Shown: positions 1 through 16,908, numbered from the stretch's first letter. The stretch is DNA of 21,171 nucleotides from Escherichia coli (GCF_003334355.1 NZ_QOWP01000047.1), one strand, 5' to 3'. Numbers and translations are program-made. Notes: a model not told the origin generated them from the sequence alone.

Positions 1-75
1 GGTCGTTAGCTCAGTTGGTAGAGCAGTTGACTTTTAATCAATTGGTCGCAGGTTCGAATCCTGCACGACCCACCA
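1..75 (+). tRNA. lysZ: tRNA-Lys (anticodon UUU), 5' end cut by window edge (first G missing)
   Basis: Identical to the complete tRNA copy at 208-283 minus its first base; anticodon TTT at 33-35; ends in CCA at 73-75. The paralogue name is by position (penultimate gene of the lysT-valT-lysW-valZ-lysY-lysZ-lysQ operon) and is less certain than the tRNA identity. Confidence 0.9.
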
Positions 76-156
76 ATTTAAAGGTGGTTACTGGTAGAGA
101 ACGTGAAGGATAACGTTGCGTTAGCAACGGCCCGAAGGGCGAGACGAAGTCCAGTC

Positions 157-174
157 ATCCTGCACGACCCACCA
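157..174 (+). repeat. Orphan copy of the tRNA-Lys 3' end (ATCCTGCACGACCCACCA) inside the inter-tRNA spacer
   Basis: 18 nt identical to the last 18 nt of both flanking tRNA-Lys genes, including the encoded CCA, with no upstream tRNA body. Confidence 0.8.
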
Positions 175-207
175 TCCTGAATGATTAAAGCAGCATAATC
201 CCGCAAG

Positions 208-283
208 GGGTCGTTAGCTCAGTTGGTAGAGCAGTTGACTTTTAATCAATTGGTCGCAGGTTCGAATCCTGCACGACCCACCA
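208..283 (+). tRNA. lysQ: tRNA-Lys (anticodon UUU), complete 76 nt
   Basis: GGGTCGTTAGCTCAGTTGGTAGAGCAGTTGACTTTTAATCAATTGGTCGCAGGTTCGAATCCTGCACGACCCACCA: cloverleaf with D-loop AGTTGGTAGA, anticodon loop CTTTTAA, T-loop GGTTCGAATCC, encoded CCA. Last tRNA before nadA. Confidence 0.93.
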
Positions 284-287
284 ATGT

Positions 288-314
288 AAAAAAGCGCCCT
301 AAAGGCGCTTTTTT
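288..314 (+). terminator. Intrinsic terminator of the tRNA operon
   Basis: Stem GCGCC (294-298) / GGCGC (304-308) with loop CTAAA, followed by TTTTTT (309-314), directly after the last tRNA. Confidence 0.8.
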
Positions 315-470
315 GCTATTCAGGCATCTCTCAATTTCAATTCTTGACCCTGATGACATACTCCGCGCTTGCTGCGTAAACAACTTTACGTCGGAGGAAT
401 AAGACGCAAAGTGTGGCATTCGGCATCTCATACGTAATTCGAGTGACTTTTCCCCACCATTCGACTATCT

Positions 471-488
471 TGTTTAGCATATAAAACA
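471..488. promoter_or_regulatory. Candidate NadR operator (TGTTTA-N6-AAAACA) in the nadA promoter region
   Basis: TGTTTAGCATATAAAACA lies about 75 bp upstream of the nadA ATG. It resembles the NadR box TGTTTA-N6-TAAACA as I recall it (5 of 6 in the right half-site); nadA-pnuC is the classical NadR-repressed operon. Confidence 0.55.
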
Positions 489-560
489 AATTACACCGAT
501 AACAGCGAATATTACGCTAATGTCGGTTTTAACGTTAAGCCTGTAAAACGAGATGGTAAG

Positions 561-1604
561 ATGAGCGTAATGTTTGATCCAGACACGGCGATTTATCCTT
601 TCCCCCCGAAGCCGACGCCGTTAAGCATTGATGAAAAAGCGTATTGCCGCGAGAAGATAAAACGTCTGCTAAAAGAACGTAATGCGGTGATGGTTGCCCA
701 CTACTATACCGATCCCGAAATTCAACAACTGGCAGAAGAAACCGGTGGCTGTATTTCTGATTCTCTGGAAATGGCGCGCTTCGGTGCAAAGCATCCCGCT
801 TCTACTTTGTTAGTCGCTGGGGTGAGATTTATGGGAGAAACCGCCAAAATTCTCAGTCCGGAAAAAACAATTCTGATGCCGACACTTCAGGCTGAATGTT
901 CACTGGATCTCGGCTGCCCTGTTGAAGAATTTAACGCATTTTGCGATGCCCATCCCGATCGTACTGCCGTCGTCTACGCCAACACTTCTGCTGCGGTAAA
1001 AGCGCGCGCAGATTGGGTGGTAACTTCAAGCATTGCCGTCGAACTTATTGATCATCTTGATAGTTTGGGTGAAAAAATCATCTGGGCACCCGACAAACAT
1101 CTGGGGCGTTACGTGCAAAAACAGACGGGTGGAGACATTCTATGCTGGCAGGGTGCCTGTATTGTGCATGATGAATTTAAGACTCAGGCGTTAACCCGCT
1201 TGCAAGAAGAATACCCGGATGCTGCCATACTGGTGCATCCAGAATCACCACAAGCTATTGTCGATATGGCGGATGCGGTCGGTTCCACCAGTCAACTGAT
1301 CGCTGCTGCGAAAACATTGCCACATCAGAGGCTTATTGTGGCAACCGATCGGGGTATTTTCTACAAAATGCAGCAGGCGGTGCCAGATAAAGAGTTACTG
1401 GAAGCACCAACCGCAGGTGAGGGTGCAACCTGCCGCAGCTGCGCGCATTGTCCGTGGATGGCCATGAATGGCCTTCAGGCCATCGCAGAGGCATTAGAAC
1501 AGGAAGGAAGCAATCACGAGGTTCATGTTGATGAAAGGCTGCGAGAGAGGGCGCTGGTGCCGCTCAATCGTATGCTGGATTTTGCGGCTACACTACGTGG
1601 ATAA
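561..1604 (+). CDS. nadA: Quinolinate synthase A
   Basis: 347 aa ORF; translation recognised as E. coli NadA, full length, with the C-terminal CxxC Fe-S motif (CRSCAHC). Confidence 0.96.
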
Positions 1605-1641
1605 CGAATAATAAGGCGTAACGTTACGCTTTGGGGGAAAG

Positions 1642-2361
1642 ATGGATTTTTTTAGTGTGCAGAATATCCTGGTACATATACCAATAGGGGCAGGCGGTTA
1701 TGATCTCTCATGGATCGAAGCGGTAGGCACGATCGCCGGGTTGCTGTGTATTGGCCTTGCCAGTCTGGAGAAGATCAGCAACTACTTCTTTGGCCTGATC
1801 AACGTCACCTTGTTTGGCATTATTTTCTTTCAGATTCAGCTGTATGCCAGCCTGCTATTACAGGTGTTTTTCTTTGCCGCGAATATTTACGGTTGGTATG
1901 CGTGGTCGCGACAAACCAGTCAGAACGAGGCGGAGTTGAAAATTCGCTGGTTGCCATTGCCGAAGGCACTCAGCTGGTTGGCGGTTTGCGTTGTTTCGAT
2001 TGGTCTGATGACGGTATTTATCAATCCGGTGTTTGCATTTTTGACCCGCGTGGCAGTCATGATCATGCAAGCATTAGGATTACAGGTTGTGATGCCTGAA
2101 CTGCAACCGGACGCTTTCCCGTTCTGGGATTCATGCATGATGGTGTTATCTATCGTGGCAATGATTCTGATGACGCGTAAGTATGTGGAAAACTGGCTGT
2201 TGTGGGTGATTATTAACGTGATTAGCGTCGTTATTTTTGCACTTCAGGGCGTTTACGCCATGTCTCTGGAGTACATCATCCTGACCTTTATTGCGCTCAA
2301 CGGCAGCCGGATGTGGATCAACAGCGCACGTGAAAGAGGCTCACGCGCGCTGTCCCATTAA
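1642..2361 (+). CDS. pnuC: Nicotinamide riboside transporter PnuC
   Basis: 239 aa hydrophobic multi-helix ORF recognised as E. coli PnuC; GGGGGA ribosome-binding site 6 nt upstream; 37 bp downstream of nadA, consistent with a nadA-pnuC operon. Confidence 0.95.
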
Positions 2362-3299
2362 TGGTGATGATGTGAATGGCCAGACACCCCTTCATTCAGG
2401 TGGCAGTCTGGCCCATGACAAGGTTGATATTCCATCTGAATGGTGGCGTGCTCAATCTGATAGTGATCCATCAGGTAGTGTTGGATCTGATCCAACAAGG
2501 CATCGTGATCGTGTGGCGGGATCACCTGCACATGCAACGTCATCACCGGCTTCTCGCCTACCATCCATACATGTACATGGTGCACATTGCGGACTTCCGG
2601 GATTTCCCGGCACATACGACGCTTCAGTTCAGCGATATCCAGCGATACCGGTGCACCTTCAAGTAATTCATTCACGCTATCTTTCAACAGTCGCCACGCG
2701 CTACGCAGAACCAGAAGCGACACCAGTATCGAGAGAATGGGGTCAGCAGGTGTCCAGCCAGTCCAGATAATAATCAACGCGGCAATAATAGCCCCAACCG
2801 AACCCAGCAGGTCCCCGAGCACATGCAGTGCCGCTGCTCGTACGTTGAGGTTTTTCTCTTCGCTGCCGTGATGAAGTAACCAGAAAGAAAGTATATTTGC
2901 CAGCAACCCAGCCACGGCAATTGCCATCATCATGCCGCCCTCGACCGGACGCGGCGTGCGGAAGCGTTCTATCGCCTCCCAGACAATCAAAATGGTAATT
3001 ACCACGAGGGCTATGGCATTCACAAACGCCGCGAGCGTGGTCAGTCTTAGCCAACCGAAAGTGTGGCGAATGGTGGGAGGACGACGTGAAAATTGCACGG
3101 CGAGTAGGGCGAAAAGCAGGGCGGCAGTATCGGTCAACATATGACCCGCATCGGCCAGCAATGCCAGAGAACCAGAAAGAAAACCACCAACGACTTCTAC
3201 CAGCATAAACCCGGCAGTCACGCCGAAAGCATACAACAAGCGACGAGCATTATTATCTTCTGGCAGGTGTGAGGACGTGTGTGAGTGTGAGTGCGCCAT
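2358..3299 (-). CDS. zitB: Zn(II)/H+ antiporter of the cation diffusion facilitator family, ZitB
   Basis: 313 aa ORF with His-rich N terminus ([11 protein letters not shown]) and C terminus (HSHHHH) and CDF-type transmembrane core; recognised as ZitB (YbgR). AGGGA ribosome-binding site upstream of the ATG at 3299. The 3' end overlaps the pnuC stop by 4 nt. Confidence 0.95.
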
Positions 3300-3360
3300 G
3301 ACGAGTCATCCCTTAATTATTCTCACTTAACTTTATGACATCATACTGCTTTTAGAAGTG

Positions 3361-3391
3361 AAAAATTAAAAGGGAGAGACTCCGCTCTCCC
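3361..3391 (-). terminator. Intrinsic terminator downstream of ybgS
   Basis: Stem GGGAGAG (3372-3378) / CTCTCCC (3385-3391); on the minus strand the hairpin is followed by a U-rich tract (complement of AAAAATTAAAA at 3361-3371). Confidence 0.7.
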
Positions 3392-3412
3392 ATTATTGGC
3401 TATTTTGCAGGG

Positions 3413-3793
3413 TTACTGCGTGGTACCGTCGGTTTTGGTATCGACATCATTATTGATGCCATCACCGGTTTGTACCTTTTTATTGATATCCGGACAGCGA
3501 CCATCTTTGCACATGGTGTTCTTGTGCTCTTCATCTTTGGTCATTCCGTCATTGTTCATTGAAGAACCATCCGAATGCAGCATTGTGCCGCCAGAACCGG
3601 TATTTACCCCGTTATTGTCGACGTTATTTGGCGCGACATTTTCACGGGCGTCAGGGGCTACCTGGCCCGCATCAGCTGCGGCGTTTGCCTGGCCGTTATT
3701 AGTTTGCGCTCCGCTATCGGCAGCCAGTGCGGCACCGCTGGCAAGGCTTAGAGTGGCAGTCAGAAATAATGTGGCCAGTTTTGTCATTTTCAT
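3413..3793 (-). CDS. ybgS: Uncharacterised secreted Asn/Asp/Gly-rich protein YbgS
   Basis: 126 aa ORF with a good ribosome-binding site (AACAGGAGCATCCT-ATG) and a signal-peptide-like N terminus ([26 protein letters not shown]); the mature part is low-complexity, rich in N/D/G/T. Recognised as E. coli YbgS. Confidence 0.9.
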
Positions 3794-4020
3794 AGGATGC
3801 TCCTGTTATGGTCGTTATGTCGGATAACCTCTTCCAACAGTGCATTTGCAGGTGAATATAAGGCATTGGTTTAAGATTTCAGCCAGGTTATGAAACGCAG
3901 CAGAGAATCTTGAAATAATTAACAAACAAAGGAGTTACAGTTAGAAATTGTAGGAGAGATCTCGTTTTTCGCGACAATCTGGCGTTTTTCTTGCTAATTC
4001 CAGGATTAATCCGTTCATAG

Positions 4021-4038
4021 TGTAAAACCCCGTTTACA
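4021..4038. promoter_or_regulatory. TyrR box (TGTAAA-N6-TTTACA) in the aroG promoter
   Basis: TGTAAAACCCCGTTTACA is a perfect match to the TyrR box consensus, about 70 bp upstream of the aroG ATG; aroG is a known TyrR-regulon member. Confidence 0.8.
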
Positions 4039-4108
4039 CATTCTGACGGAAGATATAGATTGGAAGTATTGCATTCACTAAGATAAGTATGGCAACACTG
4101 GAACAGAC

Positions 4109-5161
4109 ATGAATTATCAGAACGACGATTTACGCATCAAAGAAATCAAAGAGTTACTTCCTCCTGTCGCATTGCTGGAAAAATTCCCCGCTACTGAAAA
4201 TGCCGCGAATACGGTTGCCCATGCCCGAAAAGCGATCCATAAGATCCTGAAAGGTAATGATGATCGCCTGTTGGTTGTGATTGGCCCATGCTCAATTCAT
4301 GATCCTGTCGCGGCAAAAGAGTATGCCACTCGCTTGCTGGCGCTGCGTGAAGAGCTGAAAGATGAGCTGGAAATCGTAATGCGCGTCTATTTTGAAAAGC
4401 CGCGTACCACGGTGGGCTGGAAAGGGCTGATTAACGATCCGCATATGGATAATAGCTTCCAGATCAACGACGGTCTGCGTATAGCCCGTAAATTGCTGCT
4501 TGATATTAACGACAGCGGTCTGCCAGCGGCAGGTGAGTTTCTCGATATGATCACCCCACAATATCTCGCTGACCTGATGAGCTGGGGCGCAATTGGCGCA
4601 CGTACCACCGAATCGCAGGTGCACCGCGAACTGGCATCAGGGCTTTCTTGTCCGGTCGGCTTCAAAAATGGCACCGACGGTACGATTAAAGTGGCTATCG
4701 ATGCCATTAATGCCGCCGGTGCGCCGCACTGCTTCCTGTCCGTAACGAAATGGGGGCATTCGGCGATTGTGAATACCAGCGGTAACGGCGATTGCCATAT
4801 CATTCTGCGCGGCGGTAAAGAGCCTAACTACAGCGCGAAGCACGTTGCTGAAGTGAAAGAAGGGCTGAACAAAGCAGGCCTGCCAGCACAGGTGATGATC
4901 GATTTCAGCCATGCTAACTCGTCCAAACAATTCAAAAAGCAGATGGATGTTTGTGCTGACGTTTGCCAGCAGATTGCCGGTGGCGAAAAGGCCATTATTG
5001 GCGTGATGGTGGAAAGCCATCTGGTGGAAGGCAATCAGAGCCTCGAGAGCGGGGAGCCGCTGGCCTACGGTAAGAGCATCACCGATGCCTGCATCGGCTG
5101 GGAAGATACCGATGCTCTGTTACGTCAACTGGCGAATGCAGTAAAAGCGCGTCGCGGGTAA
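4109..5161 (+). CDS. aroG: 3-deoxy-D-arabino-heptulosonate-7-phosphate synthase, Phe-sensitive
   Basis: 350 aa ORF recognised as E. coli AroG (MNYQNDDLRIKEIKELLPP...), full length. Confidence 0.96.
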   Translation: MNYQNDDLRIKEIKELLPPVALLEKFPATENAANTVAHARKAIHKILKGNDDRLLVVIGPCSIHDPVAAKEYATRLLALREELKDELEIVMRVYFEKPRTTVGWKGLINDPHMDNSFQINDGLRIARKLLLDINDSGLPAAGEFLDMITPQYLADLMSWGAIGARTTESQVHRELASGLSCPVGFKNGTDGTIKVAIDAINAAGAPHCFLSVTKWGHSAIVNTSGNGDCHIILRGGKEPNYSAKHVAEVKEGLNKAGLPAQVMIDFSHANSSKQFKKQMDVCADVCQQIAGGEKAIIGVMVESHLVEGNQSLESGEPLAYGKSITDACIGWEDTDALLRQLANAVKARRG

Positions 5162-15030: not shown

Positions 15031-16089
15031 ATGCTGGAACTGAATTTTTCCCAGACGTTGGGCAACCATTGCCTGACTATTAATGAAACGCTGCCCGCCA
15101 ATGGCATCACTGCTATCTTTGGCGTCTCCGGTGCCGGAAAAACTTCGCTGATTAACGCCATCAGTGGACTGACGCGCCCGCAAAAAGGGCGGATTGTCCT
15201 CAATGGGCGGGTACTAAATGATGCCGAAAAAGGTATCTGCCTGACGCCGGAAAAGCGTCGCGTTGGCTATGTTTTTCAGGATGCGCGGCTGTTCCCGCAT
15301 TACAAAGTGCGTGGCAATCTGCGCTACGGCATGTCGAAAAGTATGGTCGATCAGTTCGATAAGCTGGTGGCGCTTTTAGGCATTGAACCGTTGCTTGACC
15401 GTTTACCAGGCAGCCTGTCCGGAGGCGAAAAACAGCGCGTGGCGATTGGTCGGGCTTTGCTGACAGCACCGGAATTGCTGTTGCTGGATGAACCGCTGGC
15501 GTCACTGGATATTCCGCGTAAACGCGAACTGTTGCCTTATCTGCAACGGCTGACACGGGAAATCAACATTCCGATGTTGTATGTCAGCCATTCGCTGGAT
15601 GAGATCCTCCATCTGGCAGACAGAGTGATGGTACTGGAAAACGGTCAGGTGAAAGCCTTTGGCGCGCTGGAGGAAGTGTGGGGCAGTAGCGTGATGAATC
15701 CGTGGCTGCCGAAAGAGCAACAAAGTAGCATTCTGAAAGTGACGGTGCTTGAGCATCATCCGCATTACGCGATGACCGCGCTGGCGCTGGGCGATCAGCA
15801 TTTGTGGGTCAATAAGCTGGACGAACCGCTGCAAGCTGCGCTACGTATCCGCATTCAGGCTTCCGATGTTTCTCTGGTTTTACAACCGCCGCAGCAAACC
15901 AGCATTCGTAACGTATTGCGGGCAAAAGTTGTTAATAGTTATGACGACAACGGCCAGGTGGAAGTGGAACTGGAAGTCGGCGGTAAAACGCTGTGGGCGC
16001 GTATCAGCCCGTGGGCCAGGGATGAACTGGCGATCAAACCAGGCCTGTGGCTGTACGCGCAAATTAAAAGTGTGTCGATAACCGCCTGA
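15031..16089 (+). CDS. modC: Molybdate ABC transporter ATP-binding protein
   Basis: 352 aa ORF with Walker A (GVSGAGKTS), ABC signature (LSGGEKQRV), Walker B (LLLLDEP) and a C-terminal Mop/TOBE-type domain; recognised as ModC. Confidence 0.96.
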
Positions 16090-16908
16090 TTAAATCAGGT
16101 GGCTATAAATGAATTGGGCAATGCTGTCGGTGGTGTTATCACCAATCACAATGTTGGCGCGCGCTTTTACCGCGTCATCGGCGTTGCCCATCGCCACGCC
16201 TGTACCAGCGGCTTCCAGCATACTGATATCATTAAAGTTATCGCCGAATGCCACGACGTTTTCCATCGACCAACCTTGCGCCTCAACCCATTTCGTCAAA
16301 CGTTTACCTTTGCTGTTGCCGCCGCGTGCAATATCAACCTGATCGTGCCAGGACCATTCACACTCCAGTCCCAGTTCATGTTCGACATGCTTACCAAAAT
16401 GCTGCAATTGCGGCAGGTCATCGTGCGTCAGGGCGAACTTCCATACGGCGTTAACTTGTTGCGCCGTTTCAGCCAGAGAAGCGACTTGTGTGAAAGTCGG
16501 ACGCTGTTCCGGCGGCAGGGTTTGCGCCCAGTTAGATGTGCGAATGACATGCCCGGTCGGGTGCTCATAGACCATTGCATCATCGACATACATCAGACCG
16601 TGAATGTGGTGTTCATTCAGCATCTCAATGAGTTGCAGGGCTTTAATAACGGGCATTGGGTCCGCTTCCAGCACGGTTTTTGCATGATAATCATACAAAT
16701 AGGTGCCATTACAGCAAATAGCAGGTGTATCCAGCGCCAGCGCCTGATAAAAAGGATGAATAGCGACGTGATGGCGACCTGTGACGATGATTAATTGATA
16801 GCCTGCTTCGCGAGCGCGGGCCAGGGCTTCTATCGATGAAGGAAGCAGGGTCTTTTTCGGGGTCAATAAGGTGCCGTCTAAGTCGAGAGCAATCACGCGT
16901 GTGGTCAT
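16090..16908 (-). CDS. ybhA: HAD-superfamily (Cof-type) sugar-phosphate / pyridoxal-phosphate phosphatase
   Basis: 272 aa starting MTTRVIALDLDGTLL (HAD motif I DxDGT). The ORF track extends 34 codons upstream (17010); the trimmed start matches known YbhA. Confidence 0.92.
   Translation of the reverse strand: MTTRVIALDLDGTLLTPKKTLLPSSIEALARAREAGYQLIIVTGRHHVAIHPFYQALALDTPAICCNGTYLYDYHAKTVLEADPMPVIKALQLIEMLNEHHIHGLMYVDDAMVYEHPTGHVIRTSNWAQTLPPEQRPTFTQVASLAETAQQVNAVWKFALTHDDLPQLQHFGKHVEHELGLECEWSWHDQVDIARGGNSKGKRLTKWVEAQGWSMENVVAFGDNFNDISMLEAAGTGVAMGNADDAVKARANIVIGDNTTDSIAQFIYSHLI

Follow-up and report, generated by a model that had tools for sequence, protein, structure and literature searches.

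The convergent genes pnuC and zitB of Escherichia coli end in one common stop tetramer, and the last codons of each gene encode a conserved hairpin that most likely caps the mRNA end of its convergent partner. The stretch of E. coli DNA that was analysed, here called the window, comprises 21,171 nucleotides (GCF_003334355.1, NZ_QOWP01000047.1), and the junction that it contains was compared with those of other Enterobacteriaceae. There is no intergenic DNA between the two genes, and therefore the element that forms the 3' end of each mRNA would have to be written in the last codons of the other gene. The two hairpins are best read as protective or 3'-end-defining stem-loops of a Rho-type (or collision-type) termination. 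The positions of the relevant features are collected in Table 1.

Table 1. Features of the pnuC/zitB junction and its surroundings (positions in the window)
Feature	Position	Strand	Basis
nadA CDS, gene upstream of pnuC	561..1604	+	ORF; RefSeq, quinolinate synthase NadA
pnuC CDS, 239 aa, stop TAA at 2359-2361	1642..2361	+	ORF, RefSeq annotation, homologues
Candidate Rho-loading region in the zitB read-through RNA (antisense to pnuC), C>G	2160..2237	-	Base composition
Hairpin A (pnuC tail), arms 2320-2334 and 2340-2354, loop 2335-2339	2320..2354	-	Inverted repeat, fold, pair counts
Tetramer TTAA common to both stop codons	2358..2361	.	Read directly from the sequence
zitB CDS, 313 aa, stop = reverse complement of TTA at 2358-2360	2358..3299	-	ORF, RefSeq, homology
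Hairpin B (zitB tail), outer arms 2378-2385 and 2406-2413, inner pairs 2387-2391 with 2398-2403	2378..2413	+	Inverted repeat, fold, covariation
Candidate Rho-loading region in the pnuC read-through RNA (antisense to zitB), C>G	2482..2700	+	Base composition
Terminator-like hairpin and T-run of ybgS, upstream of zitB; upstream boundary of the zitB transcription unit	3372..3391	-	Terminator scan

The shared stop tetramer and its conservation

The window contains the nadA-pnuC / zitB-ybgS / aroG region of E. coli, in which nadA and pnuC constitute what we take to be a single operon. According to the initial annotation, pnuC ends on the plus strand and zitB on the minus strand with 4 bp in common, and both the coordinates and the gene identities are borne out by the open reading frames and by RefSeq. 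The lengths of PnuC and ZitB equal those of the RefSeq proteins. PnuC matches the solved structure 4QTN and has same-length homologues across the Enterobacteriaceae, those among the matches listed in the protein search being close relatives from this family. The homology of ZitB to ZnT8 and other CDF transporters extends up to residue 301 and includes the PDC motif. The possibility of mis-annotated stops is ruled out by the conserved lengths and C-termini of both proteins. An identical 4-bp overlap is present in the PGAP annotation of the two records that were inspected, one from a K-12 derivative and one from a divergent strain, and a 401-bp segment spanning the junction is found at an identity of at least 95% in 5,425 of 5,426 complete E. 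coli genomes.

A scan for PnuC with one genome per species yielded 80 enterobacterial loci, which together with three E. coli copies make up a survey of 83 junctions. In every one of these loci, zitB lies tail-to-tail with pnuC. At 71 loci the stops have a spacing of -4, with the tetramer being TTAA in 44, TTAG in 10, CTAG in 9 and CTAA in 8 cases. The other spacings are 0 (nine loci, namely the Buttiauxella group and a few others), -7 (two loci) and +3 (one locus), and an intergenic spacer of more than 3 bp occurs in none of the 83. The overlap is conserved in orthologous gene pairs, and it is neither an annotation artefact nor a quirk of one strain.

The four YTAR variants are one transition apart, and both stops are kept in each of them. 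Any substitution in the central TA destroys both stop codons and only the outer Y and R are free to change, which is exactly the variation that is observed. We infer that this double-stop lock is sufficient by itself to freeze the spacing at -4, even if the overlap had no regulatory function.

Overlaps of this kind have been described before. Lillo and Krakauer (2007; PMC2174442) counted 58 convergent overlaps in E. coli, among which the 4-bp YTAR type is the modal class. They pointed out that the terminators of convergently overlapping genes must be located within the coding sequence of the partner, and both genes have predicted terminators in two of the E. coli convergent overlaps. As in this class, pnuC and zitB are two real coding sequences on opposite strands with both stops in one YTAR tetramer. 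Unlike the predicted Rho-independent terminators of that study, the hairpins of pnuC/zitB have no U-tract, so that they would not be among these. What is added here to the published class is the family-wide conservation, the covariation and the strand bias at this particular pair. In other respects, pnuC/zitB is an ordinary, ancient tail-to-tail pair, belonging to a class of overlaps that is common and already catalogued.

Two hairpins instead of an intergenic terminator

In a simple terminator scan of positions 1400 to 3600, no intrinsic terminator consisting of a hairpin and a T-run was found at the junction, and a scan of the same interval for promoter-like sites gave none. A search of positions 1 to 4200 against Rfam with a permissive E-value returned no family at the junction; the only matches, tRNAs and an RtT element, are at the start of the window. 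There are, however, two strong inverted repeats, one on each side of the junction and each inside the coding sequence of the partner gene. Both have the GC-rich stem-loop of an intrinsic terminator and neither has its U-tract of about 7 to 8 nt: just 3' of the stem, hairpin A is followed by UGAUCCAC and hairpin B by CAUGACAAGG. The first description of the locus had stated that there is no intergenic terminator. This is right in so far as no canonical hairpin with U-tract was found and there is no intergenic DNA at all, but the implied absence of any 3'-end definition does not agree with the presence of conserved GC-rich hairpins directly downstream of each stop, in the coding sequence of the partner. 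This suggests that the locus has evolved to define or limit 3' ends and not to let transcription run freely.

Hairpin A is part of the last 14 codons of pnuC and starts 4 nt after the zitB stop on the minus strand, on which its 15-bp stem has a folding energy of -25.3 kcal/mol (z -5.8). The fold is weaker on the plus strand (-19.8 kcal/mol). Hairpin B is part of the last 19 codons of zitB and starts 17 nt after the pnuC stop on the plus strand, with a folding energy on this strand of -21.8 kcal/mol (z -3.0). Both hairpins are in-frame coding sequence that is conserved with the genes, by which a REP element or another mobile repeat is ruled out.

One E. coli genome differs at this locus. Strain Z1002 (NZ_CP021202.1) is the sole genome of 5,425 with a junction coverage below 80%. 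About 95 nt of the 3' end of its pnuC (window positions around 2246-2340) are replaced by unrelated sequence, with loss of the left arm of hairpin A, and the gene, which misses its C-terminus, carries a pseudogene annotation. The strain retains the TTAA junction, hairpin B and zitB in intact form.

Pairing and covariation in the stems

RNAalifold provided little information for either hairpin. For hairpin B it returned no consensus structure because the alignment columns are gappy, and for hairpin A it returned only an invariant core of eight pairs with a covariation term of -0.36. Therefore, explicit counting of base pairs with controls was relied upon. For hairpin B, 12 pairs were counted on a structure-blind MAFFT alignment, with shuffled alignments and slid pairing partners as controls. 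Pairing is present in 76.6% of the cells. Covariation scores 0.247 in the observed alignment versus 0.138 ± 0.009 in the shuffled ones, with none of the 500 shuffles reaching the observed value, and the slid-partner controls remain between 0.03 and 0.09 (maximum 0.087). Cells in which both partners have changed number 77, where 38.6 are expected (again 0 of 500 shuffles). The pairs that covary are 2379/2412, 2382/2409 and 2385/2406, all of which join two wobble (third codon) positions. The third position pairs with the third position in this hairpin because the sum of the paired coordinates is divisible by three in the zitB frame. Such a wobble-wobble register allows compensatory changes to be synonymous on both arms.

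It was also observed that both stems, and not only that of hairpin B, are in this one-in-three register, in which third codon positions are paired with each other. Since the chance of this occurring for both is about 1 in 9, the observation is only suggestive.

For hairpin A, 85.6% of the cells are paired on the minus strand and 75.6% on the plus strand. Covariation on the plus strand is not above that of the shuffles, and on the minus strand it is marginal (0.123 versus 0.111, reached by 6 of 500 shuffles). The hairpin is mostly invariant, and its GCGC repeat still pairs in 58 to 63% of the cells when the partner is slid by two columns. On the basis of these comparisons, the structural evidence is good for hairpin B as the putative 3' stem-loop of the nadA-pnuC mRNA, and weaker for hairpin A as the putative 3' stem-loop of the zitB mRNA.

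The counts bear on the explanation that the junction has no function at the RNA level, with the overlap being a neutral, frozen accident and the hairpins by-products of the encoded amino acids: the palindrome-like SARERGSRA tail of PnuC in one case, the GPDC motif and His-rich tail of ZitB in the other. The scarcity of covariation in hairpin A is in line with such an origin, as is the fact that the right arm of hairpin B contains the codons for G-P-D in the PDC motif, a segment that can be aligned even with human ZnT8. However, the left arm of hairpin B is located in the non-conserved His-rich tail of ZitB, and the compensatory wobble-wobble changes in this hairpin are well above both the shuffled and the slid controls. 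Furthermore, where the ZitB tail has diverged, as in two loci labelled Pantoea (L063 and L081) and in the Buttiauxella group, a different strong hairpin occupies the same site after the pnuC stop. Examples are CAGCGCAGCA/TGCTGCGCTG in L081, and GAGCATGGCC/GGTCATGCTC in the Buttiauxella group. The presence of different hairpins in different tails counts against a by-product of the protein sequence.

Folding across the family and strand of action

The mean minimum free energy (MFE) of 45-nt segments was determined over 81 distinct enterobacterial junctions, up to 360 nt to either side. Only two deep minima exist in this range; with the pnuC end as reference, their centres are at -25 and +35, in a background of -4 to -13 kcal/mol. 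At -25 the mean MFE is -21.0 on the minus strand and -18.2 on the plus strand, and at +35 the order is reversed, with -21.5 on the plus strand and -19.8 on the minus strand. The hairpin zones contain the most stable segment of the whole two-gene region of about 1.6 kb in 56 (minus strand) and 60 (plus strand) of the 81 species, these junction sequences being phylogenetically related, and the median fraction of distant segments that are equally stable is 0.

Sequences resampled with synonymous codons, by which the protein is kept, are 6 to 7 kcal/mol less stable than the native ones (mean z about -1.7). This effect is consistent across species and modest in each individual case. An origin of the hairpins as amino-acid by-products draws some support from the resampled tails, which still fold, hairpin A at about -14.5 and hairpin B at about -22 kcal/mol, somewhat more strongly than the background of the 45-nt segments given above, although the segment lengths differ. 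On the other hand, it does not account for the consistently higher stability of the native sequences over their synonymous variants, nor for the location of the region's most stable fold in the hairpin zones in about 70% of the species.

The strand on which each hairpin acts can be approached through G·U pairs. A G·U pair is tolerated in RNA, while the same DNA pair read from the opposite strand gives an A·C mismatch. In hairpin A, the plus-strand reading contains 167 A·C cells, which are G·U on the minus strand, versus 45 cells that are G·U on the plus strand. In hairpin B there are 77 cells with G·U on the plus strand versus 23 with A·C. The same asymmetry is apparent when independent origins are counted by Fitch parsimony on a neighbour-joining tree of the flanking coding sequence: 42 origins of G·U on the minus strand versus 20 on the plus strand for hairpin A, and 43 of G·U on the plus strand versus 18 of A·C for hairpin B (35 versus 9 in its outer stem). 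The two hairpins are only about 25 nt apart, yet their biases are opposite.

By reasoning, both biases run against what deamination of the coding strand of the host gene would be expected to produce, and a replication bias would push both hairpins in the same direction, unlike the opposite biases that are observed. Part of the asymmetry could stem from constraints on codons or amino acids. A DNA cruciform or a palindrome for protein binding would not yield opposite, strand-specific G·U biases, and is ruled out. The simplest reading of these sequence comparisons is that each hairpin has been selected in the RNA in which it is located 3' of a stop, which would be the zitB mRNA for hairpin A and the nadA-pnuC mRNA for hairpin B. 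The opposite biases are also difficult to explain for hairpins devoid of any RNA function, and taken with the compensatory changes and the stability of the native sequences, they make an accidental origin quite unlikely.

A possible route to the 3' ends

Steady-state 3' ends that depend on Rho have been characterized in E. coli by Dar and Sorek (2018; PMC6061677). These ends consist of stable stem-loops that lack a U-tract and are followed by sequence with more C than G. Termination itself is diffuse and occurs further downstream, after which PNPase and RNase II trim the RNA back to the protective stem-loop. The junction described here resembles these ends: the stem-loops of pnuC and zitB are stable, are located just after the gene, lack a U-rich tail and have a mild excess of C over G downstream, a feature that is a weak indicator of rut sites. 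The plus-strand RNA of the downstream candidate region has 31 to 33% C and 18 to 26% G (in 78-nt segments), and the minus-strand RNA from 2237 to 2160 has 28% C and 10% G. A difference is that the cases in PMC6061677 are mostly in 3' untranslated or intergenic regions, some of them being REP elements, whereas the stem-loops of pnuC and zitB are predicted and are contained in the last codons of the partner.

If pnuC and zitB work in the same manner, RNA polymerase would run past the stop codon into untranslated antisense sequence. Rho would then release the polymerase at the stretches with more C than G, 100 to 350 nt downstream, possibly aided by inefficient pausing induced by the hairpin. Subsequently, 3'-to-5' exonucleases would shorten the RNA as far as the hairpin, which would then shield the mRNA. 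Complementarity between the mature transcripts would be restricted to about 100 nt (approximately 2315-2418), and the antisense overlap would be limited accordingly. The sequence comparisons show the overlap, the hairpins and their conservation across the family, the covariation of hairpin B and the strand-specific G·U bias; we infer that Rho is involved, that trimming takes place and where the actual 3' ends are located. A Rho-type termination followed by trimming back to embedded protective hairpins has about an even chance of being the correct account.

Published maps of transcript ends contain little on this junction. In the Term-seq and Rho-region tables of Adams et al. (PMC7815308), pnuC is absent and the interval from 783,600 to 784,199 is empty, which is probably due to low expression, and the SMRT-Cappable-seq supplements mention neither pnuC nor zitB.

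A different mode of 3'-end formation has to be weighed here, and it concerns the convergent arrangement itself. Overlapping bidirectional terminators of convergent gene pairs were reportedly described by Ju et al. in 2019. In the model of Wang et al. (2022; bioRxiv 10.1101/2022.10.23.513370), such terminators require an RNA stem-loop in the overlapping region, they neither resemble intrinsic terminators nor depend on Rho, and their efficiency is tied to the frequency of initiation, with ynaJ-uspE as an example pair; the preprint contains no data on pnuC/zitB. At pnuC/zitB, the hairpins would pause the converging polymerases at defined positions, and head-on and then trailing collisions would release them, a process that would be independent of Rho and would need transcription of both genes. 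The convergent orientation, the presence of two hairpins within about 55 nt of the shared stops, in a region that both transcripts would share, and the lack of the U-tracts of intrinsic terminators all fit this model; as in the published terminators, the hairpins do not look like efficient intrinsic ones. However, the published model has one hairpin element, located in an intergenic overlap, whereas pnuC/zitB has two separate hairpins about 25 nt apart that flank the overlapping stops without any intergenic DNA. Moreover, the opposite G·U biases are more readily explained by two elements that each act on one strand than by a single bidirectional one, and both genes appear to be weakly expressed, judging from the lack of called Term-seq ends, so that collisions should be rare. 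The low expression and the two strand-specific hairpins count somewhat against collision-driven release, which we regard as unlikely, and over which Rho-type release with trimming is preferred.

Antisense overlap and the question of coupling

The initial annotation had also proposed that transcription of each gene must enter the antisense strand of the other. For at least a short distance this is correct, as the coding sequences overlap, and the pair is listed as a convergent excludon on the basis of RNA-seq (PMC12288877). The further proposal was that the two functions, uptake of an NAD precursor and zinc efflux, might be coupled in this way. As a regulatory excludon, nadA-pnuC and zitB would be mutually antagonistic through antisense read-through or formation of an RNA duplex, either by transcriptional interference or by RNase III cleavage of the complementary 3' ends, and NAD-precursor uptake would be tied to zinc efflux.

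Several observations are compatible with this idea. Overlapping coding sequences force transcripts to overlap, and pnuC-zitB is among the 165 convergent excludons of MG1655 that ExcludonFinder called in at least 50% of 58 samples from their RNA-seq coverage (PMC12288877). Expression of zitB is reported to be inducible by zinc (Grass 2001, as cited in PMC4424684), and provided that the 3' ends are located at the hairpins, about 100 nt of the two mRNAs would be perfectly complementary. However, for overlapping coding sequences the RNA-seq criterion is satisfied almost by definition. The pair is listed by its RNA-seq coverage, while a functional excludon is characterized by mutually exclusive expression and RNase III processing. 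In the literature searched, in which two full-text papers name both genes, neither a functional test nor a physiological link between the pnuC and zitB pathways was found. Furthermore, conserved hairpins right after the stops point to selection for short 3' ends and not for long antisense read-through, what appears to be low promoter activity would make polymerase collisions infrequent, and the double-stop lock alone explains the conservation of the junction. A regulatory excludon is therefore very unlikely, and a coupling of NAD-precursor uptake to zinc efflux is speculation.

A related and more elaborate proposal is that the junction is an interlocked 3'-end module, in which the C-terminal codons of each gene double as the stem-loop of the neighbour in a wobble-wobble register and in which zitB and nadA-pnuC are coupled post-transcriptionally. 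To this proposal, too, we attach very little probability. If it were true, the genes could not be separated or rearranged without harm to both mRNAs, which would help to explain the synteny across the family, and the complementary and doubly structured ends of about 100 nt would let the level of one mRNA affect the decay of the other.

Neighbouring features

Several other features of the window were recorded. The predicted terminator of ybgS, read from 3391 to 3372, coincides with a Term-seq 3' end, the only one near the junction; this end is at 784890(-), 67 nt upstream of the zitB ORF (PMC7815308, supplementary file 3). Given this distance between the ybgS terminator and the zitB start, the promoter of zitB must be located within or just after the ybgS terminator (3300-3412). 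Read-through from ybgS into zitB is possible.

A second tight convergent junction (16080-16100) is formed by modC, ending at 16089, and ybhA, ending at 16090, with a gap of 0 bp. The modC stop is TGA at 16087-16089, and that of ybhA is the reverse complement of TTA at 16090-16092. These two stops form the exact centre of a palindrome, CCGCCTGATT-A-AATCAGGTGG, and a 66-nt segment of the junction folds on both strands, with -15.8 kcal/mol (z -2.4) and -14.3 kcal/mol (z -3.5). The modC-ybhA pair is also in the ExcludonFinder list (PMC12288877).

Within E. coli, PnuC also exists in length variants of 248, 234 and 232 aa, in which an internal LPLPKALSW-type repeat (window positions around 1940-1975) is duplicated or deleted. 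These variants are internal repeat indels, and an explanation by C-terminal changes is ruled out. They suggest the presence of a slippage-prone direct repeat inside pnuC. Finally, the region upstream of nadA (1-281) has two tRNA genes, tRNA-Lys in RefSeq, and an RtT repeat element (Rfam RF00391, 56.7 bits).

Significance

Much of what characterizes this junction is already known: the overlap is present in the RefSeq annotation of E. coli, its class is the most frequent one among convergent overlaps, and the pair has been catalogued as an excludon. Likewise, pnuC/zitB belongs to known kinds of arrangement, namely YTAR overlaps, terminators located in the coding sequence of the partner, and protective stem-loops of the Rho type. 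The added value is modest and consists of an evolutionarily supported answer to the question of how two genes manage with no room for a terminator: the 3'-end stem-loops are placed in the coding sequence of the partner. These stem-loops seem to be kept by compensatory wobble-wobble changes, and the tolerance of G·U pairs seems to tune each of them to the strand in which a stop precedes it.

There are also consequences for the handling of such genes. Silent or C-terminal edits, tags and deletions in pnuC or zitB can change the 3' end of the neighbouring mRNA, and His-tagging or knockout of either gene takes away the hairpin of the other. Furthermore, a missing predicted terminator is not to be equated with unrestricted antisense read-through. 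The pnuC/zitB junction is a tractable pair for distinguishing termination by Rho with subsequent trimming from collision-driven termination at overlapping genes.
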